Source: a candidate division FCPU426 bacterium
Lineage (GTDB): Bacteria > Oederibacteriota > PGYV01 > Palsa-1178
DNA: 64,000 nt
Assembly: GCA_963840035.1 (NCBI GenBank)
Contig: CAWIXE010000001.1
Location: 46,675 to 110,674, forward strand
Direction: 5' to 3'
The first letter of the stretch is position 1; every line of letters starts with the position of its first letter. A program made the position numbers and the translations under genes. The notes under the pieces were generated by a model. That model was not told where the DNA came from and ran no database searches. It saw nothing but the letters and a program-made list of their open reading frames with translations. Shown here one piece after another: positions 28,146-59,403 of the stretch.

Positions 28146-28197
28146 GCTGTCCTCCTTGAGTTTTTTCAGGCCGGGTTTAAAGCCCGCCTTTTTTTTG

Positions 28198-28713
28198 TTA
28201 TGCCTGTACTGTTTTTTCCTTATACAGCCACATTTCGTATAACGGCACTACGAGCATAATTAGCAGCGAAATACCCAGCAGCATACCCGAGAGCACCATG
28301 AATATTGACATCCACGCCGCCACATACCTGATTAGCCAGAAAGACGCGTTCGCGATTAAAACCGCGATAAAGCCGTCAACAAGCGCGAATTTTTTTAGCC
28401 ACTTCGGCACTGACCTTGCGAACATGAAGATTAAGCCTATTGTGAATGTCATAAGCGTCATCCCGAAGAAATGCGTATGGGTGTGCTGCATGAGGTACGC
28501 GGCGTCCGGTGGCTCAATCATTTTAGCCTCGTTGCCCCTGTAGTGGTCCGCGATTGAATCCGGGTTAAACCCTTCCGTTAAAGCCACCGTGCCTACCGCC
28601 GTCAAATAAGCCATACCCATACAGATAATAAACAGGGTCAAAAACAGCTTGATGGTCAGCGATAATTTGCTTAAGTTCACCATCTTTTCAATTTCCTGCA
28701 CTTCGTTTTCCAT
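28198..28713 (-). CDS. Four-TM membrane protein with QHTHTH motif, copy B
   Basis: IADHYRG, YLMQHTHTHFFGM, C-terminal LYEMW. Confidence 0.85.
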   Translation of the reverse strand: MENEVQEIEKMVNLSKLSLTIKLFLTLFIICMGMAYLTAVGTVALTEGFNPDSIADHYRGNEAKMIEPPDAAYLMQHTHTHFFGMTLMTFTIGLIFMFARSVPKWLKKFALVDGFIAVLIANASFWLIRYVAAWMSIFMVLSGMLLGISLLIMLVVPLYEMWLYKEKTVQA

Positions 28714-28740
28714 AAACCCGCCTCCTTTGTAATGTATATT

Positions 28741-29937: not shown

Positions 29938-29945
29938 ATGCCGCC

Positions 29946-30320
29946 TCAGTAACTGACAGTATCAAACTGTGTGGAATTATTTCTTGGTATTTCTATTATT
30001 ACCCTGTTTGGCAGGCATACCAGCGACTGCCCCGGCTGGGAAATCCATCCGCCATGGCTGCAGATCTTCCTCGGACAGTCCGACTTTAACACCCTTACAC
30101 TGCCATCTTTGACCTCAATTTCCATGCCGTTTATAACGGTGATTGAATCTTTTTGAAGGCTGATCTCATGTTTATCGTCATTATTTTTTGTTATTTCGGC
30201 CACCTCTGAGCGCTGGCCTGGCAGAAGCGTTGAAAACAGGGGCGCTGAAAATAACACAAGTATAAGCATGGCCGCGGCGTAATCCATCGGCCTGGCGGAA
30301 TAAAACCTTGTTTTATCCAT
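29946..30320 (-). CDS. NusG domain II-containing protein (EetA-like)
   Basis: SDCPRKICSHGGWI, SLVCLPNRVIIEI. Confidence 0.9.
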   Translation of the reverse strand: MDKTRFYSARPMDYAAAMLILVLFSAPLFSTLLPGQRSEVAEITKNNDDKHEISLQKDSITVINGMEIEVKDGSVRVLKSDCPRKICSHGGWISQPGQSLVCLPNRVIIEIPRNNSTQFDTVSY

Positions 30321-30353
30321 TTCAATCGCCTCCCTGCATTCTAATTGCTACTA

Positions 30354-30400
30354 ATACTATCTCTTTAGTAGTATTATAGCAGGCGGTTAATAAATGTCAA
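30354..30400 (-). promoter_or_regulatory. Promoter with a 7-7-7 palindrome, putative Rrf2 operator
   Basis: TTGACA-N16-TATAAT with ATACTAT-CTCTTTA-GTAGTAT overlapping the -10. Confidence 0.5.
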
Positions 30401-30515
30401 GTATGATTTTTCACAAGCGGGGGTCTTCCGGACGGATATTTTCGCCTCAACATTCATGTGCGCGCTTTTATTCACATGACGCGGGCGGCGGTTGCCGCAT
30501 TATATGATTACAAAT

Positions 30516-30544
30516 AAAAAACCGGCGGCTTTTCAGCCGCCGGC
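30516..30544 (-). terminator. Rho-independent terminator
   Basis: CCGGCGGCT-TTTC-AGCCGCCGG followed by a T-tract on the minus strand. Confidence 0.75.
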
Positions 30545-30566
30545 ATTATGTCTTTACATGCAGGCG

Positions 30567-31082
30567 CTATTTTTTTTCAGCAAACGCGCCGTATATGACC
30601 AGCGCCCTTTTTGCGGCTATTGCCACAGCTTTTGACGAAATGGTGGCGCCTGTTATCGCCCTGATGTCCTTGCCTGTCTCGATGCTGTCAGCCGCTGATT
30701 TTCCGGCAAACTGCTTGATAAAATTAGGCTGCTTGATGCCCGCGCCGCGCTTTTCCGACATTGAGATAAACCCTATGTCCCTGATCTTTTTTGTCGCGGG
30801 GTCGATGGATATTGCCATCTTGATGGGACCCCATTTTCCCTTCTGCTCCTCTATGACCACGGCGCCGGTCTTTGAGGAGTATATTTCATACTTCTTACTT
30901 ACGGGCATTTTGTTATTCAGCGCGGCCTGCACCCTTGCGGTTACCGCGTCTGTGACTTCAAAGGCCACGGCTTTCAGGTCTGTATCAGGCAGCAGACCCT
31001 TGACCACGGTCTCTTTCATGTCCGCGGCAATGACACCCGCTGCAACCGATAACATAAGCATCAAAAACAATATTTTCTTCAT
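30567..31082 (-). CDS. Exported FMN-binding (flavinylated) protein A
   Basis: Close paralog of 26397-26930; AITGATISS. Confidence 0.92.
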   Translation of the reverse strand: MKKILFLMLMLSVAAGVIAADMKETVVKGLLPDTDLKAVAFEVTDAVTARVQAALNNKMPVSKKYEIYSSKTGAVVIEEQKGKWGPIKMAISIDPATKKIRDIGFISMSEKRGAGIKQPNFIKQFAGKSAADSIETGKDIRAITGATISSKAVAIAAKRALVIYGAFAEKK

Positions 31083-31115
31083 TCACTTCCTCCTTAACAT
31101 ATTGGTCTTTTCTTA

Positions 31116-32213
31116 TTAAAAAGTCATCCTTACGGCGAGGGTGGGCCTTACGAATTGAAGGCCGTCCGCCCCGTTATTCTGCATCCAGTCGGCGCAGTCC
31201 ACCTGAAGCATTACATATGTGCTGTCCGAAAGGTTCATGTCCAGGACCGCGGTATTTGTTATGTACTTTTCCCCTCCCAGGTTTGCGGTATAGAAAAACC
31301 CGTTAAAATTATGCGCGGCCACGTTATAATTGTAAACAAGCTTCAGCCACGGCATGAATTTATACGCGGCCTTAATATAGTAGCCGTATGTTGCCGCGTC
31401 CTTTCCGGCGCCCATTTTGTTTTCCCACCTGCCGTTTGCAATCTCCGCGCGCAGCTGCAGGGCTTCCCAGTTGAACTGGATTCCTCCTGAAGCCCTCTGA
31501 TACGCATTGTGCCTGCCCGTGTCGTACGTCCCCACAGTATAAGACCCCATGACTTTGAACATCCCCATGGCCGGTTCGGTATGTATCATCACCGCGGGCT
31601 GCCTGTTGTTGTCATAAGTGTCCTCCGCGCCGTATCCGTTCATGGCATATAGCCAGACAGGGATGGCCGCATCACCTACAGCAAAGGATTTATATATTTC
31701 TATGCCTGTATCCGCCATTTCCCCCAGCCAGGGATTGGCGGCAAATTTTGATCCGTTGAATTCCTCATCCCAGAATAGCTCCTGCCCGTATTCCACTGTA
31801 AAGAGCGGCTTTAAAAGCCCTGCCGATATCTCCACCTCCATCGGGGCGGTATATTTTATCAGCGCCTTGTTAAATCCTCCAAACGCCGCCGATTCCGATG
31901 AAAGATTATCGCCGATGTTGCTTCCAAACTTCGGGGTGGCTCCCGTGCTTGCCCTGAATGACGGCTCCACCTCGACAGACAGTACGTCGGATAATGTCTG
32001 TGAAATATACAGTATTACCTCGCCAAAGCTGAATCCGGTAAATTCAGTCGAGCCGTATTTCACGCCGCCCGCCGCCGTCCTTACCCCGTCTGCCGCGTCA
32101 AATAAAGTCATTTTTATGTGTCCGCCTACAGTGGTTCCTGTGTCGGCGCAAAACGACGCGGGCGCAAATGCCATTACAAAAACAGCTGCAAATAACAACA
32201 TTTTCTTTTTCAT
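31116..32213 (-). CDS. Outer-membrane beta-barrel / porin A
   Basis: Paralog of 27039-28145 (VGGHIKMTLFD, STGATPKFG, EYG.ELFW.E.FNG); C-terminal AVRMTF. Confidence 0.8.
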   Translation of the reverse strand: MKKKMLLFAAVFVMAFAPASFCADTGTTVGGHIKMTLFDAADGVRTAAGGVKYGSTEFTGFSFGEVILYISQTLSDVLSVEVEPSFRASTGATPKFGSNIGDNLSSESAAFGGFNKALIKYTAPMEVEISAGLLKPLFTVEYGQELFWDEEFNGSKFAANPWLGEMADTGIEIYKSFAVGDAAIPVWLYAMNGYGAEDTYDNNRQPAVMIHTEPAMGMFKVMGSYTVGTYDTGRHNAYQRASGGIQFNWEALQLRAEIANGRWENKMGAGKDAATYGYYIKAAYKFMPWLKLVYNYNVAAHNFNGFFYTANLGGEKYITNTAVLDMNLSDSTYVMLQVDCADWMQNNGADGLQFVRPTLAVRMTF

Positions 32214-32297
32214 GTTTTCCTCCCCTGATTTTAATTCCCCTTATACTGCGCTTTCATTAAAAAGCCTCAATCACCCCCGTAACTGATTATGCTTTTA

Positions 32298-32810
32298 TTA
32301 CTTAACGGCTTTTTCTTTATAAAGCCACATTTCATATAAAGGCACTAGAAGCATGACAGCCAATGAAATACCAAGTAAAATCCCGGACAGGACCATGAGC
32401 ACCGCCATCCACGAAGCCACATACCTTATCAGCCAGAACGAGGACGTCGCGATTAACACAGCCACAAAACCGTCGACAAGCGCGAACTTTTTCAGCCATG
32501 CGGGTATGGACCTGGCAAACATGAAGATAAGCCCTATGGAAAAGACCATAAGGGACATGCCGAACATATGCGTGTGGGTATGCTGCATCAGATACGCGTT
32601 ATCAGGCGGTTCAATCATTTTTGCCTCGTTACCCCTGTAATGGTCGGCTATGCTTTCGATGGAAAAACCTTCTGACAACGCCACAGTCCCGACAGCTGAC
32701 AAATACGCGAACCCCATGCAGATAAGGAACATGGTAAAAAAATACTTCAGTACTGGCGGAAGCTTGCTTAAGTTTAAAAGTGACAAAAACCCTTCTCTTT
32801 CATTTTCCAT
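32298..32810 (-). CDS. Four-TM membrane protein with QHTHTH motif, copy A
   Basis: Close paralog of 28198-28713. Confidence 0.85.
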   Translation of the reverse strand: MENEREGFLSLLNLSKLPPVLKYFFTMFLICMGFAYLSAVGTVALSEGFSIESIADHYRGNEAKMIEPPDNAYLMQHTHTHMFGMSLMVFSIGLIFMFARSIPAWLKKFALVDGFVAVLIATSSFWLIRYVASWMAVLMVLSGILLGISLAVMLLVPLYEMWLYKEKAVK

Positions 32811-45524: not shown

Positions 45525-48500
45525 TTAATGAACCACCGCTATCTTCTGCGTCGATTTATAATAATCCGTCTCCACCGACACTATATACGTTCCGCTCACG
45601 ACCTTCTGCCCTTTATCGTTTGTGCCGTCCCATATAACCTCGTGCTGCGTTCTGGCTGACACCGGCCCGTCAAAAAGCGTCTTTATGAGGGCCCCTGTCC
45701 TGCTATAAATTTTTACCGTCGCGTTGTCATTTTCATACGCGTTAAAGACTATCCTGCTGCGCTCGCCTTTTTCAGGGTTTATTACGCTCTTATATAGTGT
45801 CACATCTTTTTCAGATATGGTTTCCTTTGTGTAGGCGCCGCTGCTTGTTCCCGCGTTTCCGCAGGCGTCAGCCCCGGTTACGGCCACCCTGTCTATGTCG
45901 CCCCAGCCTGTCTGTTTTGAGTAAAGATAGCGGAAAAACATTCCTGTAGTATCTCCAGGCACAGCAAAGGCAGTGCCGCTTAATACGGGTTTGTTGTCGG
46001 TATTGCCATGCGCGTATATTGTCAGCGATGGCGGTGTGACAAGCGGGTGAGTGCTGGTTATTTCCATTACCACATAATCCAGGTGTTCCGGGTTATAAAC
46101 AAGGTGCACCGAGAACCCGGGGGTGGCAGATGTACATGGCTGCGTGGAAGTGGCTGTCGCGGTAGGCGTGGCCGGCTTTGTGGACGTCCTGGTGGGCGTC
46201 GCGGTAAACGTGGGAGTTGCCGATACCGTATGTGTCAACGTGGCTGTAATTGTCTTCGTAGGCGTAAATGTAAAAGAAACCGCGCACGCGCATGTAAGCG
46301 ACAGCGTCGGCGTTGGAGTCGATGTGCGGGTCTGTGTGGCTGAATTTGTCTGCGTCAGGGTCACAGTGGATGTGACAGACGGCGTGGCCGTATTTGTCGC
46401 TGTCATGGTCCGCGTCTGCGTTGCCGTCATTGTTGCGGTCGGCGATACCGTCTTAGATGGAGTGTATGTGAAAGTTGCCGTGGTTGTGGCGGTCACTGTG
46501 TGAGGCGGGCACAAATCCTCTATGTTCCAGAGTATCATGTCGTATTGTTTTGAAGGCACGTAGGAACGGCCTGAAGCTATGGCCCTGCATACAGTCAGGT
46601 TCAGTATTGATGTCCCCTCCTCGTCATTGCCTGAATCGTAATACCTGCAGCCGCCAATGCCGAAAGTGGTATCAGCCGTCCCGTCAGGCAGGTATTTCCA
46701 AACGCATATGTCTTTATTTGCTCCGTTATGCCTTGTTCCACAGACCCATATGTTGCCCGAAGCGTCGCAAAACGCGTCTTTACCGCACGCGCCGCTCCCG
46801 CCTCCCGTGCTTGTGACAACGCCCGTCCCGTTGAAGGTGGTATCATAGGAGCCGTCGGCATTCATGACTATGACAATCATCTGCTGGCAGGTTAAATCAC
46901 AGCCTGAACCGTCATCAACAGAGCCTGTTATGACAATCTTGCCGCCCACGGTTATCGCTATTTTCACGGGTATGCAGTTCTTGTGGTTTATTACGGTGCT
47001 GATATACTTTCTGCAGCATGTTCCGTCGCCTCCAAAAGTATTCACCGGGGTCCCGTCCTCGAGGTAGCACCAGGTGACTATGGCGCGGCATGTGCCGGAA
47101 CAGCCCGGGTCATTAGAGGCGCTGTAGCCTGTCACGTATATTTTCCCTCCGCTGCACACTATGGAAGTGCCGCAGTCATCGCCGTTGCCGCCCGCCGCGT
47201 TATTCGATTTCACGCACCCGCCCGTGCCAAAGGAGGTATCCAGCGAACCGTCGTCATTGCATTTGATTATTATACTGTCATAATCCGTTCCGTTCCACGC
47301 CTTGCCCGTGCACACAATCTTCCCGCTTGAGTCAAAAGATATGCCGCAGCCGTATGATGGCCCGGTCCATGCCGCGTTCGCGTAAACTTTCCAGCCGCAG
47401 CCGTTAAATGTGGTGTCACATGAGCCGTCGGCATTGAACCTGTAAATGCACAGGTCAGAGCCTGCGCAGCCCGCCACAACTAATTTTCCGGAAGGGTCGC
47501 ACTCCATTGTGATGTCATTGTTCCACACGTAATTAGTCATCGGCCCCGGGCACTTTATTTTTCCGTTTTCCCCGAATGTCAGGTCTATGGACCCGTCAGG
47601 CAGGTATTTGTAAATGTATATGACATAGCATGTGCAGGTATCGTCCCAGATGATGTTCAGGGTGTAAATATTGCCTGAAGCGTCCTTGCATACTTTTTTT
47701 GAGGTATCGTCCCCGGGCCCACCTGTTATGACCGTGTCGTCAGGGAAAAATGACGACTGCGTCTGTGTTATGGTCGGGGTCAGGGTCATTGTCGCGGTTA
47801 TTGTAGGCGAAAAAGTCGGGGACAGCGGCGCAGGTGTATTGACCGGCGGGCATGGGTCCAGCCCGTATATTTCAATATCATCCACCATGAAATCAGACAC
47901 ATATGTCTGTCCAAGATTTGGGTCCGGATTTCTTGACTGAAACGCTATCGCGTACAACTGGCTCAGGCACTGGGCTTTATTCCGCAGCGACCCATAAGTG
48001 AGATTCATCATGGAAAAGGGTATGCTAATCTTCACCCATGTGCCGGCGGGAGTCTGTGCCGGGCCTATAAGATAGCTAAAATAATCCATTGTCGTCGGGT
48101 CAGGATTCAAAGAATCCATTAACATGACCTTGTATGTGCCGACCGTGTCTGTAATTCCCCTTTTTACCCGGAAACTTATACCGGACGCGCCGGATAAATC
48201 CCTTGAAGTTCCTGTAACATTTGTGAGCATGCATTCCATTCCGATCAATGGATATTTAAAATCCGCCGGCTGTGTTCCGCGTGTTACCGTGCCTGTGATG
48301 CCCGCGGCGTATCCCGTCCCGCCGTAACCCGGAGCGCTCATTATGAATCCCGATGTCGGGGGCCATACATATGATATTCCATAATTCACCGGCGCGCTGT
48401 CGTCGTAAGAACGCCATGCGCCTCCAAGGTAATTTACGTCATCACCGTCATTGCAGTCGTCAATTAGGCACGTGGCTGCAATGGTCGGCGTCATGGTGGC

Positions 48501-50587
48501 GGTATATGTGCGCGTTACCGTGTTGGTGGCTGTGTTCACCGCGGTCGGCATGACCGGAGTCAGTGTCGGCGTCGGCACGATTGTCCCGCACCCCGTGAGC
48601 ATAACAACACCATTTGAATCAGCTGTGATCCCGCCCGGAGTATTCGCTTTTATGGAAGCCACATTTGTAATGTTCACGCATGCGTTGACAATTCCCCACC
48701 ACGTGAGCGAGCCTTCAACCGCTTCAGAGCTGTCCCCGAGGCTCCACTTTAAAACCGGCCCGGTTGATGACGGCGGCGTCATTGCTCCGGCATAAGTAAT
48801 GCCTGCAGGCACAGTGTCATATACTTCAATCCCGGTAAAGGGCCTTGAGGTTGTCAGGATGAAATTATCAAATGAATTAGTCGCTGATATGTTCCTTTTG
48901 AAGAAAATTCCCGGCCGCCAGTCGCTGTAATTTCCGCCGTACATAAAATCAGGGTCAGCTGCGGCGCCTGTATCCGTCCATGTCATCCAATTATTCGGCT
49001 CAGGGTCCCCGCGCTTCCATACTTTTACGTTAAATATGTAGTTGCCGGCCGAAGGCGCAATGACGGTCTTTGTCTTAAACCATTTGCCCCCGGTCAAACC
49101 CGCGGAATTTACCGTGTCCAGCGCGTACCACGCAGGGGTTCCGTCAGATTTTTCTATGCTTATATACCCGGCGGGCGCGTTATCAATGGATAATGTCAGC
49201 GCGTAGTACCTCTTATTTGGCGCGGCCAGCCCGTTGCTTTTTATCAGGACAGATAAATCAGAAGATATGTCGCCGTTAGGGTTTATGAGAACGTCAGCTT
49301 CTACCATGGCTGAGTTTCGTATCTGCACCAGCGAAGTATCCGCGTTATCAAGGAGCAGCGCGGGATATTTTAATGAACCCGCGATGTCCGCCGTAATAAA
49401 ACGGTCGCCCGTATTGCACGGCTCAGAAACAGTCCACGTACCATTCTCCCCGTTAAACGGGTCGAACTTCCAGCCTGCCGGAGGGGAGGCTGAGTATACT
49501 CCGGGTGTGATATCATCAAAAGGCCTGAACGCTTTCAGGACTCCGCCTTCCGCGAGGTAGTCCATGACATAAGTTACCACATCCCCTAAAGACCCGGACA
49601 ACCGGCTTTGCGCCACATTTATGGTCAGCGGAAATGCGTCAACCGAAGCAGGAAAATCCACGACAATATCGGAGAGTCCTGTCATCCTGCCGGTGGCCAG
49701 CGTGGAAAACGCCGTCCCCGCAGGGAGCGGATTTACGAGTTTACACTTTACCCACACAGTGCCTGCCGCGTCCCCGGCCATTGATGTCCTGTCCGGAAAT
49801 ATCCAGGTAATGTTCCCGCTTGTTGACCCTATTGCCGGCGCAGCCGCCACAATTGAGCCTGTCGGGCCGTATGATTCAAGGCTTAAATTCCCGCCTCCCG
49901 GTATGGAACTGATTATTGTCAGAGGGCCGTTTGCGTATCTATAATCATATGAAAAGACAATTGAATCATTTACCGTCTGTAGAATGCCCGCGGACACTCT
50001 CCCGTCGAACGAAAAACTTTTTGCCTTAACAGGAGCAGCCAGGAAGTGCCGCTGTAAGTACAGTCAGCCGGCGGCACCCATTCGGTTTCGTTTAAATTAG
50101 AGTCCTTCATCACAACGTGCAGGTAAAGCATGTTGTTTGAACATCCTGGAAAATTAAAGCCCCCCGGTATGTGTACCTGATAAACTTTCACAAAAGTTTT
50201 TCCGTCCCCGGTGCCGATGCATGTATCACAGTCAGCAATGCCGCCGCCCGGACTTGGATTTGCCATATAGCCGATTGCCCCTCCGCCGCCCGGCAGCGCT
50301 GCCGGCTGCATGGCCGCAATATCAATGCCTTTGGCGCTTACCACAAAAACCTGCCCCGTGGCTGAAACAGCCGGATTTTGCCTTGCCGGATTGGTGCTTA
50401 TGGCTATGGCAATCTGATGGCTGTTAAATAGCTGGCCGCAATATGACACAGTGATGTTAACAAGGTCCCCGAAGTCCGGGTTTGGCTGGTCCATTGTAAC
50501 GCTTAATATCCTCGGATTTGCAAAAAGAGATGCCGCTGATAATAGCATAATCAGCGCAGCAACTAACGAGCTTTTTATTGTTTTCAT
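45525..50587 (-). CDS. Large secreted multidomain protein (N-domain, DUF11-like, CIA30/CBM11-like, Cys-rich delta-60 propeller, Thr-Pro linkers, FlgD-Ig tail), split by one frameshift near 50040
   Basis: ORFs 49970-50587 (signal peptide) and 45525-49997 join with one extra base; VYDTVP; DGSLDTSFG repeats; WDGTNDKGQKVVSGTY. Confidence 0.8.
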
Positions 50588-50653: not shown

Positions 50654-51556
50654 TTACAACTGCATATCCAGGGTTATCCTGTGCGCCGTTCCCAGGTTTC
50701 CAAAAGGCTGGTAAGCGTAGGAAAACCTTATTTTATCGAGTAAAACGCCGATTCCCGTGCTTAAACCGCTCAAATCATGCCTGAAGCCGTATCCGGCCCT
50801 TGCCACAAATATGTCATATATCTGCGCCTCTGCCCCAAAATCCAGCGTAGGAACCTCGTCCTTTCCAAAGAGCCTGTTAACATCGACAGAAAAAAGCAGG
50901 GATGCAACCCCTAATACCTTGAATTTTGTGCTCAGTCCGGCTTTAATATTTGAAGGCAGAGGGTCGCTTATTTCCACATACGCGCTCTGAAACCCTATGT
51001 TCTGTATCACGGCCCCGGCCCTGGTGTCGGGATTACTGCCGAGTTCCACAAAAACACCCGCATCCGCGGCCACGCCCGCTTTCTGGTAAATGTAAAGCCT
51101 GCTGTAAAACCCTTTTATGCTTGCGCCCAGCGCCACTTTCGGCATGATATAAAAACCATATGACCCCGCTATTACAAGGTCGCAATTATCCACCCTGCCT
51201 GTTTCAACACCAAATTCATCAATATCGTTAAAATCCATTGTGCAGACAAACTGTATCGAAGCTGCCGCGGTTCCGGCACCCACAGGCATGGCCCCGCCAA
51301 TGTACTCGCAGTTTGTATCGGCAAACGAGGAAAAATGAGTGAGGGAAATTGAGGTTTTTGTCACCTGGACTAACCCGGCCGGGTTAAATATCATGGCTGA
51401 GAGGTCGTCGGCCACGCCGCAAAAAGCGCTGCCCATTCCCGATGTCCTCGCGGAAGGTTCCATTCGCAGAAAATCCGCGTCAACCCTTCCAGCCCCGCAA
51501 ATGATTGAGGGGATAAGCAGAAGCAAAAGTATTTTAGACATTGTAAAGTAATTCAA
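50654..51556 (-). CDS. PorV/PorQ family outer-membrane beta-barrel
   Basis: ADFLR..SAR..GMG.AF.GVADD..A..FNPAGL; ARAGY; FSYAYQPFGNLG.AHRITL. Confidence 0.88.
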   Translation of the reverse strand: MNYFTMSKILLLLLIPSIICGAGRVDADFLRMEPSARTSGMGSAFCGVADDLSAMIFNPAGLVQVTKTSISLTHFSSFADTNCEYIGGAMPVGAGTAAASIQFVCTMDFNDIDEFGVETGRVDNCDLVIAGSYGFYIMPKVALGASIKGFYSRLYIYQKAGVAADAGVFVELGSNPDTRAGAVIQNIGFQSAYVEISDPLPSNIKAGLSTKFKVLGVASLLFSVDVNRLFGKDEVPTLDFGAEAQIYDIFVARAGYGFRHDLSGLSTGIGVLLDKIRFSYAYQPFGNLGTAHRITLDMQL

Positions 51557-51663
51557 CCCCGTTTCACCCGCTCCCGTGATAATCTGAACCCGGATCCCTG
51601 TTTCCTGATTTACTGTATTATATAATAGTTTATGGACATTACAAGCGGCTTATGCAAAAGTTA

Positions 51664-51699
51664 AATAAAAAAGCGGGGGTTTTACCCCCGCCTTTTATT
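51664..51699 (-). terminator. Rho-independent terminator
   Basis: AATAAAAAAGCGGGGGT-TTT-ACCCCCGCCTTTTATT. Confidence 0.75.
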
Positions 51700-51743: not shown

Positions 51744-53696
51744 TTATCTTATTACCGCCACTTTGATGGTTTTTTTCTTTCCGCAGGCGTCGATTACTAT
51801 GTTATATATCCCCGAGACCACGTCTTTTTCATCGCTGTTTTTAGCGTACCAGGTGAAGTCGTGCAATCCCGCTTCCACGTCCCTGTCATTTATAACCTTG
51901 ATTAATTTTCCGTTTTTGTTGAAGACTTTTATCTGAACCTTGCATTTTTTCTCAACCCTGTACTTCACATGGCAGCCTTCACCCGGTTTGTCCACGACAT
52001 TGTCGTCGATTTCATCTATAAAATCGTCATCGTTCATATCCGGCGTTGAAGTGGCTGTCACTGTCGGAGTGCCGAAATACGGTGTCAATGTCGGTGTGGC
52101 CGTATAGGTATTTGCCGGAATGTGCGGCGTAAGAGTCTCTGTGAATGTCTTTGTCACGGCCGGCGTGACAACGGTTACGGTTCGCGTAACGGTCTGCGTG
52201 GCAGTAACAGAAGATATGCACGCGCATGTCGGCGTAAATGTAGACAATACCGGTGTCCTTGTCAATGTCTCTGTAAATGTCATTGTAGTTCCCGGCGTCA
52301 CAGCGGTTATGGTCCGCGTAACGGTCTGCGTGGCTGTCTCCGTACATATCACCGGCGGCGCTACCGGGTTCGGGGTAAATATGACTGTATTATTTACCTC
52401 ATCAGATTCCGCCACCTGTGAATCCTTATCAACTATGACCTGCGTTGACGTAAGCGGTGTATATTGGTTATAAAATACCACTGTCGTGCTTGCGCCGGCT
52501 CCAAGCCCTGCTACAACCACTGTATTGCCTTCCAAATCCACTACAAAAGATCCGGCTGCTGATGATCCGGTATTTTGCACAAAAACCCTCGCCACTGTCG
52601 GGTCAGTCACCAGGTTGCAGGCCGCGATTGGCAGCCTTACATAGTCCATGCTGGTAGCCGCAAGCTCAGGCAGGCCGGGGTCAGGTGTGGAAGTGTATGT
52701 TACCGTCTCAGTAAATGTCGGAGTGATTATTACAGCAGTTCTGGTAGGTGTGATGGTAGAAGACCCGGAGCATAACAAATTTGCGGACACAGTATTTGAA
52801 AATGTCTTCGCGTAGTACGAATCGGCTGCCGCCGCGCTTGTAACGCTCATTCCGCAGTTAATCACTTTTGCCACCCATGTAAGCGCGCCTGATGTATTGC
52901 TGACGGTCCCCAGATACCACTGCACAATTCCGGGGCCAGCAATAGTCGCCGCGGGGCTTGATGTTACATATGTCATGTTAGCAGGCACTGTATCATATAC
53001 GGATACTTCAAATACGTTGCCCACAGCCGTATAATTAATTACATACGCGATTTCGTCGTTTACCGCAAAATCCGTCCCGTTCTGGAGTTTTGTGATGGTA
53101 AAAGTATCCAGCACGGCTGTCATTGTGGCGGTGCAGGTAAAAGTAGGTGTGGCGGCAGGCGCGGTGGATGTCTGTGTCGCTGTCACAGTAAACGTAGGGG
53201 TTCCCGTTAAAGTCGGAAAAGGCGTAAGCAATATGATATTCAAAGGTATGGATGCCTGGCTTTGTACTGATGTGCAGCTGGTTAAAAACGAGCTGCCTCC
53301 AACCACCACATAATACTGTGTGTACGGTTCAATCGGCCCGGTCGGGACATTAATCACCCATTCCACTGTCTCGCAATGCGCTGACGCCTGTGAGTCTCCC
53401 ATATCATAACCGCTGGAGAAACTTGTCTCCGGGGCTATATTTATACCCGATTCCGAAACCTTTATCAGCTGTCCTGAAGTATTGCACGGCTGAAATGTCG
53501 TAAATTTTGATATTGCGAGCGCAAGGTGGCTTGTATCAGAAGCGTCCGCACAGTAAGTGAAGTTCACGGTAATTGCCTGGCCCACGACCTGTGACGGCGA
53601 ACTTATGGAATTAATTACAACCCCTGATAATACCGCATGAGCCGCAGCTGAAAAAAGCATCAGGATTATGAGGACTGCTATTTTTTGTTTTTTCAT
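51744..53696 (-). CDS. Secreted Thr-Pro-rich protein with DUF11, CARDB and FlgD-Ig tail
   Basis: Signal peptide; VYDTVPANMTY; VQNTGSSAAGSF...VAESDEVNN; FTWYAKN...VVSGIY. Confidence 0.85.
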   Translation of the reverse strand: MKKQKIAVLIILMLFSAAAHAVLSGVVINSISSPSQVVGQAITVNFTYCADASDTSHLALAISKFTTFQPCNTSGQLIKVSESGINIAPETSFSSGYDMGDSQASAHCETVEWVINVPTGPIEPYTQYYVVVGGSSFLTSCTSVQSQASIPLNIILLTPFPTLTGTPTFTVTATQTSTAPAATPTFTCTATMTAVLDTFTITKLQNGTDFAVNDEIAYVINYTAVGNVFEVSVYDTVPANMTYVTSSPAATIAGPGIVQWYLGTVSNTSGALTWVAKVINCGMSVTSAAAADSYYAKTFSNTVSANLLCSGSSTITPTRTAVIITPTFTETVTYTSTPDPGLPELAATSMDYVRLPIAACNLVTDPTVARVFVQNTGSSAAGSFVVDLEGNTVVVAGLGAGASTTVVFYNQYTPLTSTQVIVDKDSQVAESDEVNNTVIFTPNPVAPPVICTETATQTVTRTITAVTPGTTMTFTETLTRTPVLSTFTPTCACISSVTATQTVTRTVTVVTPAVTKTFTETLTPHIPANTYTATPTLTPYFGTPTVTATSTPDMNDDDFIDEIDDNVVDKPGEGCHVKYRVEKKCKVQIKVFNKNGKLIKVINDRDVEAGLHDFTWYAKNSDEKDVVSGIYNIVIDACGKKKTIKVAVIR

Positions 53697-53760: not shown

Positions 53761-54708
53761 TTATTTTTCTTCCTGCGGCTTTCCATCATATATCTCTATG
53801 TCCAGGCTAATCCTGTGCGCCGCTCCCAGCATCTCAAAAGGCTGGTAGGAGTAGGAAAACCTCACCTTTTCCATGTTCACTCCGATTCCCAGCGAAAGGT
53901 TGCCTGTGTCATGCCTGAAGCCATAACCTGCCCTGATTGAAATCATCTGAAAAACATCCGCTTCCGCGCCGATATCCAGGGTGGGAAGCTCGTCTTTCAT
54001 CACCAGCCTGTTCACGTCGACGCCGAGGGTAATAATGGCGGCGCTGCCCGCGTGTATCCTGGCGCCTATTCCCGCCTTTAAATTTATGGGCATGGGGTCT
54101 GCTATTGATATGTAAGCCCCCTGTACTCCCGCGTTTTGAAGGACGAATCCCGCGTAAATGTCAGGGTTGCAGCCTAACTGCATGCGTCCGCCTATATCAA
54201 AGGCAAAACCCTGCTTTGAATACTTATAAAGGACGCTCCTGAATAATTTCGCGTTTACGCCAAGGCTTATGTCCGGCGTAACAGGGTAAGCGTATGAAAA
54301 TGTCCCGACTATGTCCATATTATCCACGCTTCCGTTCTCCACGCCGTAGGAATCATATACGGGAAAATCAAATGTATAGTTGACAAGCAGCGAAGCGCCG
54401 AAGACGCCTTTAATGCCGTCAAAACCCATGGCGCCGCAGAGGTATTCGCTGTTGTTGTCGGCGAACGAGGAATAGTGCGTAAAAGAAACAACGGGTTTTT
54501 TTATTGATACAAGGCCGGCCGGATTATAAAGGATCGCATTTATATCGTCGCTTATGCCCGCGAACACATTTGACATGGCCGCTGTTTTGGCGGGCGGTTC
54601 AAGGCGTAAAAAATCCGCGCCAACCCCTCCCGCGCCAAAAGCCGGCATCACAGTTAACACGATTAAACAGGCAGACAAAAAAAATGACCTGACCGCTTTT
54701 GTTCCCAC
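53761..54708 (-). CDS. PorV/PorQ family outer-membrane beta-barrel
   Basis: GADFLRL..PAK.AAM, YNPAGL, IRAGYGFRHD, FSYSYQPF..LG.AHRISL; start uncertain (GTG 54708, up to 54774). Confidence 0.88.
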   Translation of the reverse strand: MGTKAVRSFFLSACLIVLTVMPAFGAGGVGADFLRLEPPAKTAAMSNVFAGISDDINAILYNPAGLVSIKKPVVSFTHYSSFADNNSEYLCGAMGFDGIKGVFGASLLVNYTFDFPVYDSYGVENGSVDNMDIVGTFSYAYPVTPDISLGVNAKLFRSVLYKYSKQGFAFDIGGRMQLGCNPDIYAGFVLQNAGVQGAYISIADPMPINLKAGIGARIHAGSAAIITLGVDVNRLVMKDELPTLDIGAEADVFQMISIRAGYGFRHDTGNLSLGIGVNMEKVRFSYSYQPFEMLGAAHRISLDIEIYDGKPQEEK

Positions 54709-54859
54709 AATGTGCCCCCACATTAAAATAATCACAGATTCCAAATCACATATCCCAAAGGTGGTACGAATCACAAATCTCTGATTACAAGTCCCAAATT
54801 TAAACCAAACCCTTTTATATCTTCAGTCCTCTTTGGGATTTGGGATTTGGGATCTGTGA

Positions 54860-55801
54860 TTACTTTACTATCGCCGCTTTTATCTTCTGCTCTGTCAGTC
54901 CGGTCTTAATATAAATAATGTATTTACCTGACGGAAGGTTCATGCCTGACGTGTTCCTGCCGTCCCATTTTTCCTCGTATATTCCCGTTGTTTTATCCGC
55001 GTTAACCATTTCATTAACCGGTTCGCCGCGGAAATTATATATTATGATTGTAACCTTTGCCGTTTCCAGAACTTCATATTTTATATGCATTGTCTCTCCC
55101 AGCGAAGGGTTAAAGACATTGTTGAGTATTATTACCGGTTTGTCCAGGCGCGGGGTCTGCGATTTTACAACCGCGGCGGCGATGACTTTGTTTTCCTTTT
55201 TTTCCTCCTGCGCCTGCGGTTTTACTTCAAAAACGGTAACAGGCTTTACCTCATGCGCCGGGCCTTTGCCTGGCCCGTCATACGCGGCCTGGTTCTCCTC
55301 CGGTTTTGACGCCACTTCCACAGCAGCCTGCGGCGCTTCCTGCGTGGCGTGTTTTACGGCCGCTCCGTCATTTTTTATCAGCTTAGGATAGGTGGCCTGC
55401 TTTGCCGGCGGTGCGTATGCCACAATTGATTTTTCATTTTTATTTGACGCCATTGATCCATCTGTTTTTATTGTTATCTTACCCGCCATAAGCACCAGGA
55501 ACATGAATGCGGCAAAAGCGCCTGCCGCGCTTAATACGGCGGCCGGGGTCAGCTTAAAAGAAAAAATCGTGTCCATTATTGAAGGCGGCTGTACGCCCGC
55601 TTTTTTCCATACTTTAGAGTTGAAATCAGCTGGTATCTTTATCTCAGCCGGATTTTCCACAGCTGTTTTTATTATCTTATAGGCCATGTATTCGGCCGAG
55701 CATTTTTTACATCCGCGGGCATGCTCCAGGAATTCCGCTCCCGGCGCCGCCTTGCCTTCTTCAGCCTCTTTTAATGTTTTTTTAAACTCTGCGCACTTCA
55801 T
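54860..55801 (-). CDS. Zinc-binding anti-sigma factor with TM and C-terminal FlgD-Ig domain
   Basis: MKC...HARGCKKC (HxxxCxxC), one TM, NVFNP...WDGRNTSG..LPSGKY; 4-nt overlap with the sigma gene. Confidence 0.85.
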   Translation of the reverse strand: MKCAEFKKTLKEAEEGKAAPGAEFLEHARGCKKCSAEYMAYKIIKTAVENPAEIKIPADFNSKVWKKAGVQPPSIMDTIFSFKLTPAAVLSAAGAFAAFMFLVLMAGKITIKTDGSMASNKNEKSIVAYAPPAKQATYPKLIKNDGAAVKHATQEAPQAAVEVASKPEENQAAYDGPGKGPAHEVKPVTVFEVKPQAQEEKKENKVIAAAVVKSQTPRLDKPVIILNNVFNPSLGETMHIKYEVLETAKVTIIIYNFRGEPVNEMVNADKTTGIYEEKWDGRNTSGMNLPSGKYIIYIKTGLTEQKIKAAIVK

Positions 55802-56382
55802 GATTTTTCACCCATCATTTTTATAAGTTTCTTTTTAAGGCTTTCCCTCGCGCGGGAAAGCTTTGACTTCACGCTTCCCAGAGGCATTTTAAGCACCGCG
55901 CTTATTTCCTCGTACTCGAGCCCCTGCATGTCCCGCAGTATTAATATGTTCCTTGAATCCTCGTCAAAACCTTCCATGGCCAGGTTTATCATCCTGCGGG
56001 ACTCTTCCGCTTCCAGCTGGTCGTCCACGCCGGATTTTTTATCCCTTATGTCTATTTCAATCTTTCCTGTTTCTTCGTCGCCGTGTATGGACTCGGTATC
56101 AAAGTAGTGGCGCCTGTTTAAGGCATCCAGCCTGTTTATGCACATGTTCACAGCCACCCTGTAGAGCCATGTCGAGAACTTTGATTTGTGCTCAAAACTT
56201 TTAATGTTTGAGTAAGCCGCGCAGAAGACTTCCTGCGCCATATCCAGGGCCTCCTCGGAGTTGCGCATGTACTTTAAGCACAGCCCCGCGATTACCTGCC
56301 TGTATGCGGTGATGATCCTGTCAAAAGCCCCCCTGTCGCCTGCCTGGGCTTTACGGACGAGTTCCGCGTCAATTTCCTGCAT
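55798..56382 (-). CDS. ECF RNA polymerase sigma factor
   Basis: DMAQEVF, SKFSTWLYRVAVN, LEYEEIS..L..PLGSVKSKLSRAR. Confidence 0.96.
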   Translation of the reverse strand: MQEIDAELVRKAQAGDRGAFDRIITAYRQVIAGLCLKYMRNSEEALDMAQEVFCAAYSNIKSFEHKSKFSTWLYRVAVNMCINRLDALNRRHYFDTESIHGDEETGKIEIDIRDKKSGVDDQLEAEESRRMINLAMEGFDEDSRNILILRDMQGLEYEEISAVLKMPLGSVKSKLSRARESLKKKLIKMMGEKS

Positions 56383-56428: not shown

Positions 56429-56841
56429 AATAAAAAATTGAAGATAGTGGATTTAAGATTGCGGATTAATAAAAGACCTAAAAATGCCTTTTTATCAGGT
56501 TTTGGTATATTAATCCGCAATCCCCAATCAACAATCTTCAATGGTTTTCCCTAACCCTCAGTATTATATAAGGAAAGCCGCTTCTTTTCAAGAATAAACC
56601 GCTTTACCTTCCTTATATATACAGGATGCCCTTTAAGGGTTATTTATATCTAATATCGCATATCCAATATTCCCCGTTTCGCTTGGCGGAACAAGGCATT
56701 AAAATTATCCTTTTAACCTGAATATGTTTATGTTAAGATATTGGAACTATTAGTCATAATTTGGATATCAATAGTGCTATTAGACGCGCTTATATCTAAT
56801 ATCTAACCGCGCATATCCGAAATACTATCAGGAGGATTTTG

Positions 56842-59403
56842 ATGAAATTTAAAGAGTTTAACGTAGTACCGAACCTGCCGGAGAAGCTCAAACCGCTTTT
56901 AAGCCTGGCAAGCAACATATGGTGGGCATGGGACGCCGAAGCTTTTGGCCTTTTCAGGGACATTGACTCTGACCTGTGGTCCGAGACCTCCCATAACCCT
57001 GTAAAACTCCTTTATAACGCGTCACAGGAGAAGCTCAACCAGCTCGCTGCTGACGAGGGTTTCCTCTTCAGGATAGACAGCGTCATAAAACGCCGCGACC
57101 AGTATATTTCCAGGCCGTCGTGGTACGACAAAGTAAAAAAATCAATGCCTGACGATTTCCTTATAGCTTACTTTTCAGCGGAATACGGCCTTGCAGAGTG
57201 CCTTCCTGTGTATTCAGGCGGCCTTGGCGTATTATCAGGCGACCATTTAAAGTCAGCCTCTGACCTCGGCCTTCCTTTTATAGCGGTCGGCCTTTTATAC
57301 GGACAGGGCTATTTCCACCAGTATTTAACAAGCGAGGGCTGGCAGCAGGAACGCTATGTCAACCACGATTACCACATCGCCCCTATAGCCCTTATTAAGG
57401 ATAAAAATAACCAGCCTATAATCCTTTCCATACAAATGCCCCACGCCAATGTAAAATTCCAGCTGTGGAAAGTATCGGTTGGCCGCATATCGCTGTATCT
57501 GATGGACACGAACATACCGGAAAACACCCCGGCAGACCGCGAGATTACCGCTCTTTTATACGGCGGCGACACGGATATGAGGATCAAACAGGAATACCTT
57601 CTTGGCATAGGCGGCATGATAGCTTTAACCGCCTTGAACCTAAACCCCACGGTAACACACATGAACGAAGGACATTCGGCATTCTTAGCCCTCGAACGCA
57701 CAAAAATGTTCATGCACAATAAGGGCATGTCGTTCGCGGAAGCGCGCGAGGCAGTGGCCGGGTCTTCAATGTTTACCACACACACGCCTGTTCCTGCCGG
57801 AAACGACCGCTTTACATATGACGTCATGGAAAAATACTTCAAGGCATATGTGGAACAAAATTTAAAGATACCTTTTAACGACTTCTTCAGGATGGGCCGC
57901 GTAAACCCGGACGACGAGAACGAAACGTTCTGCGTCACCGTACTCGCCCTTAAAATGTCAGACTTTAATAACGGCGTCTCAAAACTCCACGGCCACGTAT
58001 CGCGCGACATGTGGAAAGACATATGGAAAGGCGTGCCTTTGGATGAAGTGCCCATCACGCACATCACAAACGGAATCCACATGAATTCCTGGATATCAAA
58101 GGAAATGGCTGATTTATTCATGCGCTACCTCGGCACGCGCTGGGTTGACGCTCCGGACGACCATACCATCTGGTCAAGGATCAGCGAAATACCCGACACA
58201 GAACTTTGGAGGACGCACGAGCGCAGGAAAGAACGCCTTGTGGCCTTTGTCCGCAGGACGCTGAAGAAATCCCTTAAAGGACGCGGCGCCACAAAGGAAG
58301 AGCTCGACAGGACAAACGAGATATTGAACCCGGAAATACTCACAATAGGTTTTGCCAGAAGGTTTGCCACTTACAAAAGGGGCACGCTTATATTCAGGGA
58401 CATAGAGCGCATCAAAAAGATACTTTCAAACAAGGAAATGCCGGTGCAGATCATATTTGCCGGAAAAGCCCACCCCAAGGACAATATGGGCAAGGATTTC
58501 ATCAAACAGGTATATCAGATAGCCCAGAAGGAAGAGTTCCGCAACAACATAGTTTTTGTCGAGGACTACGACCTTCACACGGCGCATTACCTGGTACAGG
58601 GCGTTGACGTATGGCTCAATAACCCGATAAGGCCGCTTGAGGCCTCGGGCACCTCCGGAATGAAAGTAAACTTCAACGGCGGATTGAACTGCTCGATTCT
58701 TGACGGCTGGTGGGACGAGAAATCAGAGGACGACAACGGCTGGAACATAGGCCGCGGCGAGGAATACGAGGACCCGGAATACCGCGACAGCGTGGAAGCC
58801 AGCCAGTTATATGACATCCTCGAAACAGACATGGTCCCGCTTTATTACAAGCGCGGCAAAGACGGCCTCCCGCATGACTGGGTCAAGAAAATGAAGACCT
58901 CCATGCAGACTCTCTGCCCTGTTTTCAACACCAACAGGATGGTCATGGAATACACGGAAAAGTTCTACATCCCGGGCGGACAGCAGTTTTTCAACCTCTC
59001 GGCCAATAACTTTGCCAAGGCAAGGGGCCTGGCAAAGTGGAAGGAAGAACTGCGCAAGAACTGGAACGGCGTAAAGGTAAACCAGATATCAGCCGAAACA
59101 ACAGGCGACATAAAAGTAGGCACTTCCATAAAAGTGCAGGCCATGATAGACGGCTCATGGTTAAAACACGAGGACCTGCTTGTGGAGATATACTACGGCT
59201 ACTCAAGGGGCAAGAAAGACCTGGAATGCACGGCAGCCGTAAAGATGGAATACAAAGGCAACAGGGACAAGGATTTCATCTTTGAAGGCTTGATAAAAAC
59301 AGAAGCCTCCGGAACGATAAACTACACAGTAAGGGTCCTCCCGAAAAACGGGGACCTAAACGTAAAGTTCCAGCCAAACATGATAAAGTGGAGTGAAGTA
59401 TAA
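56842..59403 (+). CDS. glgP: Alpha-glucan (glycogen) phosphorylase
   Basis: YSGGLGVLSGDHLKSASDLG, HMNEGH, FTTHTPVPAG, GFARRFATYKR, EASGTSGMK. Confidence 0.97.
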   Translation: MKFKEFNVVPNLPEKLKPLLSLASNIWWAWDAEAFGLFRDIDSDLWSETSHNPVKLLYNASQEKLNQLAADEGFLFRIDSVIKRRDQYISRPSWYDKVKKSMPDDFLIAYFSAEYGLAECLPVYSGGLGVLSGDHLKSASDLGLPFIAVGLLYGQGYFHQYLTSEGWQQERYVNHDYHIAPIALIKDKNNQPIILSIQMPHANVKFQLWKVSVGRISLYLMDTNIPENTPADREITALLYGGDTDMRIKQEYLLGIGGMIALTALNLNPTVTHMNEGHSAFLALERTKMFMHNKGMSFAEAREAVAGSSMFTTHTPVPAGNDRFTYDVMEKYFKAYVEQNLKIPFNDFFRMGRVNPDDENETFCVTVLALKMSDFNNGVSKLHGHVSRDMWKDIWKGVPLDEVPITHITNGIHMNSWISKEMADLFMRYLGTRWVDAPDDHTIWSRISEIPDTELWRTHERRKERLVAFVRRTLKKSLKGRGATKEELDRTNEILNPEILTIGFARRFATYKRGTLIFRDIERIKKILSNKEMPVQIIFAGKAHPKDNMGKDFIKQVYQIAQKEEFRNNIVFVEDYDLHTAHYLVQGVDVWLNNPIRPLEASGTSGMKVNFNGGLNCSILDGWWDEKSEDDNGWNIGRGEEYEDPEYRDSVEASQLYDILETDMVPLYYKRGKDGLPHDWVKKMKTSMQTLCPVFNTNRMVMEYTEKFYIPGGQQFFNLSANNFAKARGLAKWKEELRKNWNGVKVNQISAETTGDIKVGTSIKVQAMIDGSWLKHEDLLVEIYYGYSRGKKDLECTAAVKMEYKGNRDKDFIFEGLIKTEASGTINYTVRVLPKNGDLNVKFQPNMIKWSEV

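Follow-up and report, generated by a model that had tools for sequence, protein, structure and literature searches.

An anti-sigma factor with a secretion-tag-like C-terminus in a candidate division FCPU426 bacterium: a possible link between cargo synthesis and outer-membrane export

Why should an anti-sigma factor anchored in the inner membrane end in a domain that looks like a secretion tag? The question is raised by a gene of a candidate division FCPU426 bacterium (assembly GCA_963840035.1), for which we analysed a window of 64,000 nucleotides of contig CAWIXE010000001.1 (positions 46,675 to 110,674 of the forward strand; coordinates below are window positions unless another contig is named). 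The gene, at 54860..55801 on the minus strand, encodes a 313 amino acid protein with these exact coordinates and an ATG start according to its translation, and Pfam, a family profile and a structure model together describe its product as an anti-sigma factor with a C-terminal sorting-tag domain. Its start lies within the stop codon of the upstream gene for an extracytoplasmic function (ECF) sigma factor (55798-56382), with a 4-nt overlap (ATGA). We put at about even the chances that this protein is a tethered pseudo-cargo, which would couple the synthesis of tagged cargo proteins to the capacity for exporting or anchoring them, and we are less confident than that of the specific direction of the feedback. 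The ECF/anti-sigma switch and the tag-barrel pair seen in type IX secretion systems (T9SS) are each known separately; their natural fusion in an anti-sigma factor with a sorting tag appears to be new. We know of no RsiW-type protein with a secretion tag, and a literature search that covered texts but not the supplementary tables of ECF classifications brought up no anti-sigma factor described as carrying a T9SS or FlgD_ig domain at its C-terminus.

The preliminary description of this gene had noted a cytoplasmic HxxxCxxC domain, one transmembrane helix, a linker of about 100 residues rich in Ala, Pro, Lys and Glu, and an FlgD-like immunoglobulin (Ig) domain resembling those of the neighbouring cargo proteins, and all four were recovered in our analysis. 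Residues 1-68 (55598..55801, minus strand) form a helical domain in which the motif H27-A-R-G-C31-K-K-C34, with C3 upstream, can be read from the translation. C3, H27, C31 and C34 are unchanged across the seven closest homologues, and the last three are invariant in 51 family members. The Pfam zf-HC2 model gave no match to the protein at E≤0.1. The profile built from the 51 members matched the solved cytoplasmic domain of Bacillus subtilis RsiW (5wuq_C) with an E-value of 1.9e-11 over profile positions 4-75, and a diverged paralogue in the same genome (contig 2, 331455-332420, 321 amino acids, 24% identical) passes the zf-HC2 cut-off with 22.9 bits against 22.2. The identity given to the domain, which the model builds as four helices with predicted local distance difference test (pLDDT) values above 90, relies on the motif, on the profile match and on the paralogue taken together. 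By motif and homology it would bind zinc, and would bind and inhibit the paired sigma factor.

A lone hydrophobic peak at residues 87-105 (Kyte-Doolittle mean 2.28) corresponds to a single transmembrane helix, residues 86-107 in the model (55481..55546, minus strand). It is followed by a disordered linker of 114 amino acids (residues 108-221; 55139..55480, minus strand), with a model pLDDT of about 50 and a composition of 16.7% A, 14.9% K, 8.8% E and 8.8% P, that is 49% for the four residues, and then by a seven-strand beta-sandwich modelled with a pLDDT of 97-98 (residues 222-313; 54863..55138, minus strand), which ends in KIKAAIVK. Since the sigma factor that the N-terminal domain has to meet is cytoplasmic, and since the protein has no signal peptide and only one transmembrane helix, the architecture argues for an N-in, single-pass topology with the sandwich outside the cytoplasm. 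The linker sequence, otherwise unconserved, has at its middle a GPGKGP motif (residues 175-180, 55261-55278) whose glycines G176, G178 and G180 are invariant in the seven closest homologues and which is missing from the paralogue mentioned above; the motif may serve for cleavage by a protease or for docking.

The sandwich resembles the type A C-terminal domains (CTDs) that address proteins to the T9SS. FlgD_ig was the only Pfam model that it passed (residues 237-298, E 5.4e-8, 33.2 bits, cut-off 27). When residues 215-313 were compared by BLASTP with the last 100 amino acids of two cargo proteins encoded in the same cluster, we found 29% identity to each, over 79 amino acids for the cargo of 650 amino acids (E 1e-12) and over 94 for the cargo of 1490 amino acids (E 5e-12). 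A Foldseek search of the sandwich against the PDB placed PorZ of Porphyromonas gingivalis first (5m11, E 1.2e-5, 93 columns; the aligned range of PorZ was not displayed) and PorU (6za2) at rank 41. With a hidden Markov model (HMM) made from the anti-sigma tags, 39 open reading frames (ORFs) of the genome were retrieved, 31 of them with the domain no further than eight residues from the C-terminus. The tag of the anti-sigma factor is homologous to about 37 other C-terminal tags of the genome, most of which end in K, any residue, a hydrophobic run and K or R; typical endings are K-I-A-V-I-K and K-V-A-V-I-R, beside the K-I-K-A-A-I-V-K of the anti-sigma factor. A conserved near-terminal lysine, which contacts PorV, is described for type A CTDs in PMC10994853. 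Instead of the Sec signal peptide and the whole export that characterize type A CTD proteins, our protein has a cytoplasmic anti-sigma domain and a membrane anchor. When tags were ranked by their likeness to that of the anti-sigma factor, those of the two neighbouring cargoes came second and fourth of the 37 scoring cargo tags, or third and fifth of the 39 scoring tag ORFs with the query set aside, the other anti-sigma tag ranking above both; this ranking is suggestive only, and we make no claim of co-evolution of tags within the cassette.

Is the fusion an accident of a single genome? A word-indexed search returned six relatives of similar length, 33-39% identical over their full length and all with FlgD_ig, and when 1.84 billion representatives were searched exhaustively with a profile, 108 matched at E≤1e-30. 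A protein-atlas comparison gave scores of 0.85 or less, mostly with CHU_C clusters of Bacteroidota and with one zf-HC2 cluster, which we regard as leads only. Among the best 150 profile matches, the short ones matching in a single stretch are full-length relatives and the long ones are FlgD_ig proteins with multiple repeats. The combination of zf-HC2, transmembrane helix and FlgD_ig, for which the preliminary description had proposed a search, proved to be that of a family: in a scripted scan of the profile matches, at least 61 diverged proteins have HxxxCxxC, one transmembrane peak and the tag. The length of the linker is kept in these 61 (83-148 amino acids, median 122) as its sequence drifts, the mean majority fraction over 51 members being 0.48 in the tag, 0.39 in the anti-sigma domain and 0.21 in the linker. 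The cargo-style K-x-hydrophobic-K ending is kept as well, 51 of the 61 members ending in K, and in 48 the tag domain runs to the last residue. The names given by the sources, for the ten that we looked up, are 'hypothetical protein' and, once, 'anti-sigma factor RsiW'. When 99 genomes of the phylum were searched, full-length matches occurred in all 24 genomes of the order, the source genome included and often with two or three copies; they also occurred in at least about ten genomes of other families, among the best 150 of more than 1000 matches.

Directly downstream of the anti-sigma gene, at 53761..54774 on the minus strand, lies the gene for a 14-strand barrel of the PorV/PorQ family (barrel no. 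1), which probably starts with the GTG at 54705 and then a signal peptide; it scores 145 bits with the NCBIfam model PorV_fam (cut-off 90), shows the 14 strands in its model, and is the predicted partner of the tag. We compared 20 related loci with 1.5-kb flanks. Thirteen complete loci, including this one, have the order sigma factor, anti-sigma factor, barrel and exported protein (hereafter type A loci), six have the order barrel, sigma factor, anti-sigma factor and large exported protein (type B loci), and the remaining one ends with its contig inside the anti-sigma gene. A PorV-like barrel is thus adjacent in 19 of 20 loci, the twentieth meeting the contig end. Nineteen adjacent barrels were scanned (18 from relatives and that of the type B copy in this genome) and all match PorV_fam, 18 over the cut-off; the only one under it is incomplete at the end of its locus. 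According to the ORF lists, a sigma-sized ORF is directly upstream of the anti-sigma gene in 20 of 20 loci, which was confirmed by sequence in two of them and in the paralogue. Both types keep the sigma factor, the anti-sigma factor and the barrel as one tight unit, with gaps between genes of type B units of 0-47 bp in six loci of relatives and 72 bp in the copy of this genome. Starting from the alignment of the seven closest homologues, a locus search gave two full-length loci out of eight. Two orthologous loci with 6-kb flanks show a cassette of four genes: those of the sigma factor and the anti-sigma factor, that of a single barrel, and that of a single tagged cargo, which is 1189 or 1314 amino acids long.

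A second question is whether cargo genes belong to the regulon. The sigma factor (55798..56382, minus strand, 194 amino acids) is RpoE/SigW-like: it matches Sigma70_r2 and r4_2 of Pfam and the NCBIfam model sigma70-ECF (113.7 bits, cut-off 42.9), and among named models it scores best with SigW (143 bits) and RpoE (139.5 bits), in each case below the equivalog cut-off. The GGAACT promoter that had been noticed earlier was found twice by pattern search as a promoter of ECF type, once 23 bp ahead of the sigma ORF, as GGAACTT-N13-TCTG (P1, 56405..56428, minus strand), and again, as a second copy, 39 bp ahead of the ORF of the 650 amino acid cargo (P2, 53735..53758, minus strand). With a spacer of 12-16 nucleotides the pattern occurs twice in the window, where 0.05 copies are expected and none of 100 shuffled sequences reaches two, and five times in the whole 3.46-Mb genome, including P1 and P2. 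Of the other three copies, one stands 219 bp ahead of an ORF of 108 amino acids, and for two the next 250 bp downstream contain no start of an ORF of at least 90 amino acids. P1 and P2 share the consensus GGAAC-N16-TCTGTCA; in the type A loci, where the motif was read by eye from printed matches, GGAAC-N16-(T/C)(T/A)TG(T/A)C precedes the sigma gene in 13 of 14 and stands between the barrel and the following gene in 12 of the 13 that reach that far. The pairing of these motifs places the barrel in the transcription unit of the regulator itself and gives the cargo gene its own copy of the sigma promoter, and the sigma factor would be autoregulated through P1. No conserved promoter of the GGAAC type was apparent when the type B loci were inspected for one.

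Could the tag bind the barrel that is encoded with it? Mature barrel no. 1 (14-row alignment) and tag residues 215-313 (51-row alignment) were submitted to complex prediction, as had been proposed earlier, and scored 0.91, 0.90 and 0.89, against 0.24 for the best of three controls, with a partner pLDDT of 91 and at least 90% of contacts shared between runs. The mark for this score is reached by 58 of 80 solved complexes and by 2 of 110 mismatched pairs, counts that hold only roughly here because the analysis used its own alignments. This controlled prediction supports binding of the tag to the co-encoded barrel. The modelled contacts of the tag are in its NVFNP start (224-233), in residues 255-261 and 287-299, and in the last strand with the near-terminal lysines (304-313), and those of the barrel all fall in loops b1/b2, b3/b4, b5/b6, b7/b8, b11/b12 and b13/b14 or in the N-terminal segment. 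In porins both termini are periplasmic and the loops that lead from odd to even strands are extracellular, and by this usual rule the predicted contact face would be the extracellular-loop side of the barrel. A contact on that face means that the tag would have to enter the pore of a translocon or cross the outer membrane, and that touching the barrel from the periplasm would not be enough.

The preliminary description had gone further than architecture and pictured a decoy substrate engaged by PorV or by the translocon. Engagement as such gains from the homology of the tag, the linkage to a barrel in 19 of 20 loci, the complex prediction and the presence of an SprA-like gene (see below), but the predicted face is at odds with a decoy that is merely touched in the periplasm. 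A precedent exists in the stalled translocon of Flavobacterium johnsoniae, as presented in PMC10994853, where the extracellular loops of PorV wrap around the CTD inside the SprA pore and the passenger trails at the periplasmic rim. Our predicted contact mode appears to match this solved PorV-CTD mode, and a tag tethered to the inner membrane could sit at the position of the stalled substrate, if the linker spans the periplasm.

What machinery could such a tag meet? In this genome we found 39 PorV_fam matches, 27 of them over the cut-off, and counted 38 ORFs for PorV/PorQ-like barrels beside the 39 tagged ORFs. For 18 of the 38 barrels a tagged gene lies within 3 kb, in most of these cases directly upstream and on the same strand; examples of such cargo-then-barrel tandems are C2:1234864-1244913, C3:281511-284365 and C1:1135283-1139428. 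A protein of 2165 amino acids matches the SprA/Sov model TIGR04189 with 188.2 bits (cut-off 200, E 1.5e-55), and an SprA-like gene is present in 23 of the 24 genomes of the order; Pfam SprA_N had no match in this genome and was also silent on its control. An RseP-type site-2 protease is encoded as well (209.7 bits). Among the components that make up a full T9SS, the genome has PorV/PorQ-family barrels, and the GldL/PorL-GldM/PorM motor, the GldK/N ring and the PorU sortase were not detected in it, by searches whose control genomes were silent for GldL, GldM and GldN. The impression is of a reduced system of T9SS type in which single cargoes have private barrels. A putative core cluster on contig 2 (365328-384589) contains a PorV-OmpA C-terminal fusion of 771 amino acids, tetratricopeptide repeat (TPR) proteins, the SprA-like protein of 2165 amino acids, in which fn3 domains lie close to the N-terminus, a Wzy_C O-antigen-ligase-like protein, a heptosyltransferase and fn3-rich tagged proteins; one of its TPR proteins has a weak PorW/SprE match.

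These observations can be assembled into the following scheme. The ECF sigma factor, translated together with the anti-sigma factor, would be kept at the inner membrane by the RsiW-like domain, and a linker of about 115 residues would carry a copy of the cargo sorting domain towards the outer membrane. The PorV/PorQ-like barrel of the same operon would recognise this tag in the way it recognises cargo tags, by its extracellular-loop face and inside or beyond an SprA-like translocon. Engagement of the tag would then decide the fate of the anti-sigma factor, most likely in the sense that the linker becomes exposed or strained once a free barrel or translocon has captured the tag, after which a site-1 protease and then the RseP-type site-2 protease would cut. 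The released sigma factor would transcribe its own operon from P1 and the adjacent gene for a tagged cargo from P2, and the fresh cargo, by occupying the barrel, would close the loop, so that cargo synthesis would track free export or anchoring capacity. A more concrete form of this scheme, which we offer tentatively and hold for clearly less probable than the coupling itself, makes the export tag a dipstick: tethered to the inner membrane, it would thread the SprA-like translocon and be caught by a vacant PorV-like barrel, and because the protein cannot leave the inner membrane its capture would lead to cleavage and to release of the sigma factor. Cargo genes, including those for the surface cellulases near the second copy described below, would be on only while empty barrels exist, and a single fused protein would act as a secretion-coupled checkpoint in a pared-down T9SS-like system with roughly one private barrel per cargo, in a lineage outside the Bacteroidota.

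Several points weigh against the coupling of cargo synthesis to export. The complex prediction may reflect memory, as PorV-CTD complexes have been solved, and it is silent on affinity. A protein anchored in the inner membrane must thread its linker into or through the translocon, for which 83-148 residues suffice only if they are well extended. The T9SS tag models stay below their cut-offs on the same stretch of the protein (CHU_C 21.5 against 27, PF18962 Por_Secre_tail 15.9 against 27, TIGR04183 18.9 against 23). The fold is generic, domains of FlgD, alpha-2-macroglobulin and C5a peptidase matching at similar E-values, and fold alone proves little since FlgD and several unrelated Ig-like domains score alike. 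GldL, GldM and GldN gave no match in a genome that is 98% complete, although control genomes were silent too, so that their absence is unproven; GldK gave only weak partial matches (34.9 bits against 350), and the matches to PorU cover only the C-terminal tag region, its catalytic domain not being detected in the genome. With no GldL, GldM, GldN or PorU catalytic domain detected, the energising and processing of any export are left without a candidate. PrsW was not found in the genome by a search whose control rang in B. subtilis, and no site-1 protease was identified. Furthermore, the strict promoter pattern marks one cargo gene only, one that ends in a terminator-like hairpin, and the rest of the cluster is unproven as part of the regulon. 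Finally, the barrels linked to anti-sigma factors tend to form their own clade, a pattern that suits an ordinary cargo carrier no better than a barrel dedicated to signalling.

This last point introduces the strongest alternative, in which the barrel would be a dedicated outer-membrane sensor and the tag a permanent connector that passes an external cue (perhaps glucan, for the second copy) to the anti-sigma factor, as in FecA-FecR-FecI or the Dma proteins of Bacteroides, export capacity not being sensed at all. We judge it unlikely but worth weighing at some length. In a quick FastTree phylogeny of 51 barrels, 36 of them from this genome, over about 290 columns, the barrels of type A loci form a clade with a support of 0.96 and those of type B loci one with a support of 1.0. 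The two are joined at 0.73 only, a grouping that sets them apart from 33 of the 36 barrels of the genome, and for a third relative of these barrels (contig 3, 274947-275912) no sigma/anti-sigma pair is encoded in the vicinity. In both gene orders, moreover, the barrel belongs to the operon of the sigma and anti-sigma factors and not to that of the cargo. The surface of the tag is unusually conserved, whereas the surface by which type A CTDs contact the translocon is reported as poorly conserved in the account of PMC10994853, and the anti-sigma factors of the Dma type offer a precedent in PMC10927553. The type B copy, besides, precedes genes for GH8 and GH9 glucanases and follows a LacI-type regulator. 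Yet the barrels are small, with about 290 residues and loops of 3-10 residues, which leaves little surface for a ligand. The four-gene cassettes of the two loci with 6-kb flanks have one barrel for both the anti-sigma factor and the tagged cargo, so that this barrel probably serves the cargo too, and barrel no. 2, which stands in the cargo part of our cluster, is a 49% identical paralogue that falls within the clade of type A barrels (support 0.91).

The two other explanations account for less than either the coupling or surface signalling. In the first, the Ig-like sandwich would bind a periplasmic or envelope ligand, or shield a protease site, and its likeness to tags would come from a shared fold and descent; RseA with RseB, RsiV with lysozyme and the carbohydrate-binding modules of the clostridial RsgI anti-sigma factors are comparable. 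That FlgD_ig alone passes its cut-off and that numerous unrelated Ig-like domains come up in the fold search with comparable E-values would be expected of such a sensor, but we consider it improbable, as it leaves unexplained the barrel adjacent in 19 of 20 loci, the K-x-hydrophobic-K ending of 51 of 61 members, the pairwise homology to the tags of neighbouring cargoes and a complex score of 0.90 against 0.24 for the best control. Equally poor are the prospects of a pure tether, in which the tag would anchor the sigma/anti-sigma pair under export sites or staple both membranes and the sigma factor would be freed by some other stress route: a spacer-like linker of constrained length (83-148 amino acids) and the failure to find a site-1 protease agree with it, but the conserved sigma-dependent promoter ahead of the tagged cargo argues for a link between tag and regulon, and anti-sigma factors of this class are normally controlled by a signal.

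The coupling of cargo synthesis to export recalls several known systems without coinciding with any of them. Among these, SigW-RsiW (5wuq) has a homologous N-terminal domain with HxxxCxxC, a single membrane pass and a gene paired with that of the sigma factor, but the extracytoplasmic part of RsiW is unrelated to the sandwich and is cut by PrsW, the protease not found in this genome. Release in the RsiW class proceeds by stepwise proteolysis that ends with a protease of the RseP/RasP type. FlgM is alike in that the inhibitor of a sigma factor is an export substrate, or here a look-alike of one, and that expression follows export competence; FlgM is soluble and wholly exported, however, while engagement could here involve no more than the sensor end, so that cleavage would be needed, and the proteins and machines are unrelated.

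PorV-PorU and PorQ-PorZ are known anchoring pairs of T9SS carrier barrels. Here too, a gene for a 14-strand barrel of the PorV/PorQ family lies beside one for a matching C-terminal sandwich, and the predicted contact involves loops on the extracellular side of the barrel together with the last strand of the tag and its near-terminal lysines; unlike T9SS cargo, the tagged anti-sigma factor is anchored in the inner membrane without a signal peptide. Cognate and genetically linked PorP/SprF shuttles are described for type B CTDs in PMC12618676. In P. gingivalis, according to PMC7712824 and PMC12152298, the CTD of PorA serves as an export signal and also, in the periplasm, as a ligand of PorY, which acts upstream of the ECF sigma factor SigP, and the second of these reports adds that an engineered PorA tethered to the inner membrane still signals. 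The CTD of PorA also binds PorV. The PorA-PorY/PorX-SigP pathway is thus alike in giving a T9SS-type CTD a second, regulatory role, with a signal that runs to an ECF sigma factor for secretion-related genes. It differs in that PorA is a free exported cargo and the ligand of a histidine kinase, whereas here the tag is fused to the anti-sigma factor and no two-component step intervenes, and in that its regulon consists of parts of the machine itself, whereas here, by promoter, it would consist of cargo and barrel. The host is also not a member of the Bacteroidota, and the locus has no detectable context of the PorXY type. In FecR and Dma systems, as here by prediction, an ECF sigma factor is governed by an anti-sigma factor in contact with an outer-membrane barrel, but no FecR or TonB-receptor family was among the Pfam and NCBIfam matches of the six genes of our cluster. 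The Dma anti-sigma factors of Bacteroides, as portrayed in PMC10927553, span both membranes; in our case the C-terminus is a soluble sandwich of 92 residues and the barrel a separate polypeptide, joined to it by a predicted contact with the tag.

The means by which bacteria keep the synthesis of secreted and surface proteins in step with the export capacity of the outer membrane are largely open for type IX-like systems, and the PorA-PorXY-SigP pathway of P. gingivalis, which is indirect and was recently found, is the only worked example. A fusion of an anti-sigma factor to a tag would be the most direct wiring imaginable, and with four genes and one promoter it is small enough for reconstitution; if the coupling is real, export load could be read out with this module as a compact reporter. 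The reduced system of T9SS type in this lineage, which lies outside the Bacteroidota, would also bear on the evolution of the secretion system and on its minimal working set.

The second copy of the module suggests what else such a switch may govern. At contig 2, 329762-345177, genes for a PorV-like barrel, an ECF sigma factor and the tagged anti-sigma paralogue follow one another in the type B layout, and are followed by genes for two GH8 proteins with CBM11-like domains (1297 and 1609 amino acids) and for a GH9 protein (1157 amino acids). By their printed C-termini the three enzymes end in the K-x-hydrophobic-K style; none of them gave a score with the tag HMM. The switch may therefore govern the display of surface cellulases in uncultured degraders of plant fibre. 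A LacI-type regulator and a PorV-TPR fusion are encoded just upstream of this module.

The cluster of the anti-sigma gene itself reads, on the minus strand, P1, sigma factor, anti-sigma factor, barrel no. 1, P2, cargo 1, hairpin, barrel no. 2, a protein of 205 amino acids and cargo 2. Cargo 1 (51744..53696), of 650 amino acids, has a signal peptide, a CARDB domain, Thr/Pro-rich spacers and the C-terminal tag, as seen from its translation, Pfam and BLASTP, and a strong terminator-like hairpin of 13 pairs, 7 of them G-C, with a following T run stands directly after its gene (51668-51696). Barrel no. 2 (50654..51556) scores 150.5 bits with PorV_fam. The 205 amino acid protein (49970..50587) is exported by its translation and has no family match in Pfam, and cargo 2 (45525..49997), of 1490 amino acids, combines DUF5122 beta-propeller repeats (Pfam) with a C-terminal tag (BLASTP). 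Ahead of barrel no. 2, at 51617-51644, we noted a sigma-70-like promoter match (10/12). Given this match and the hairpin after cargo 1, the cluster probably comprises at least three transcription units.

By eye, and without a score, the 205 amino acid ORF and the N-terminus of the 650 amino acid cargo look alike (…SVTMDQPNP… and …INSISSPSQ…, then …Y-C…AIAIS), and the gene after the barrel opens likewise in related loci (…SVTMNP…), as if with a conserved unnamed cargo domain. Across the interval that separates the stop of the anti-sigma gene from the start of the barrel gene runs an inverted repeat with 37-nt arms that are 89% complementary (54724-54760 and 54831-54867). We considered it as a regulatory hairpin and ruled this out, since its core, TTTGGGATNTGTGAT, recurs 49 times in the genome and the repeat is therefore not specific to the locus. 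A second palindrome, GATTGCGGATTAAT, upstream of P1, has 19 copies in the genome; both are dispersed hairpin repeats resembling repetitive extragenic palindromic (REP) elements. Divergent from the sigma operon, a gene for a DUF3417 and glycogen/glucan phosphorylase protein occupies 56839-59403 on the plus strand, and by its N-terminal sequence the same gene adjoins the sigma gene in at least eight related type A loci (L006-L008, L011, L016, L017, L019) and in this locus. Farther away in the window, at 26397-32810 on the minus strand, lies an apparent tandem duplication of a four-gene module, which encodes an FMN_bind protein, a protein of 365-368 amino acids, a protein of 170-171 amino acids without a family and a fusion of Hpre_diP_synt_I and CbiQ; one copy of the 365-368 amino acid protein has a weak porin O/P match, and genes for two Rrf2 regulators and for ApbE adjoin the module.

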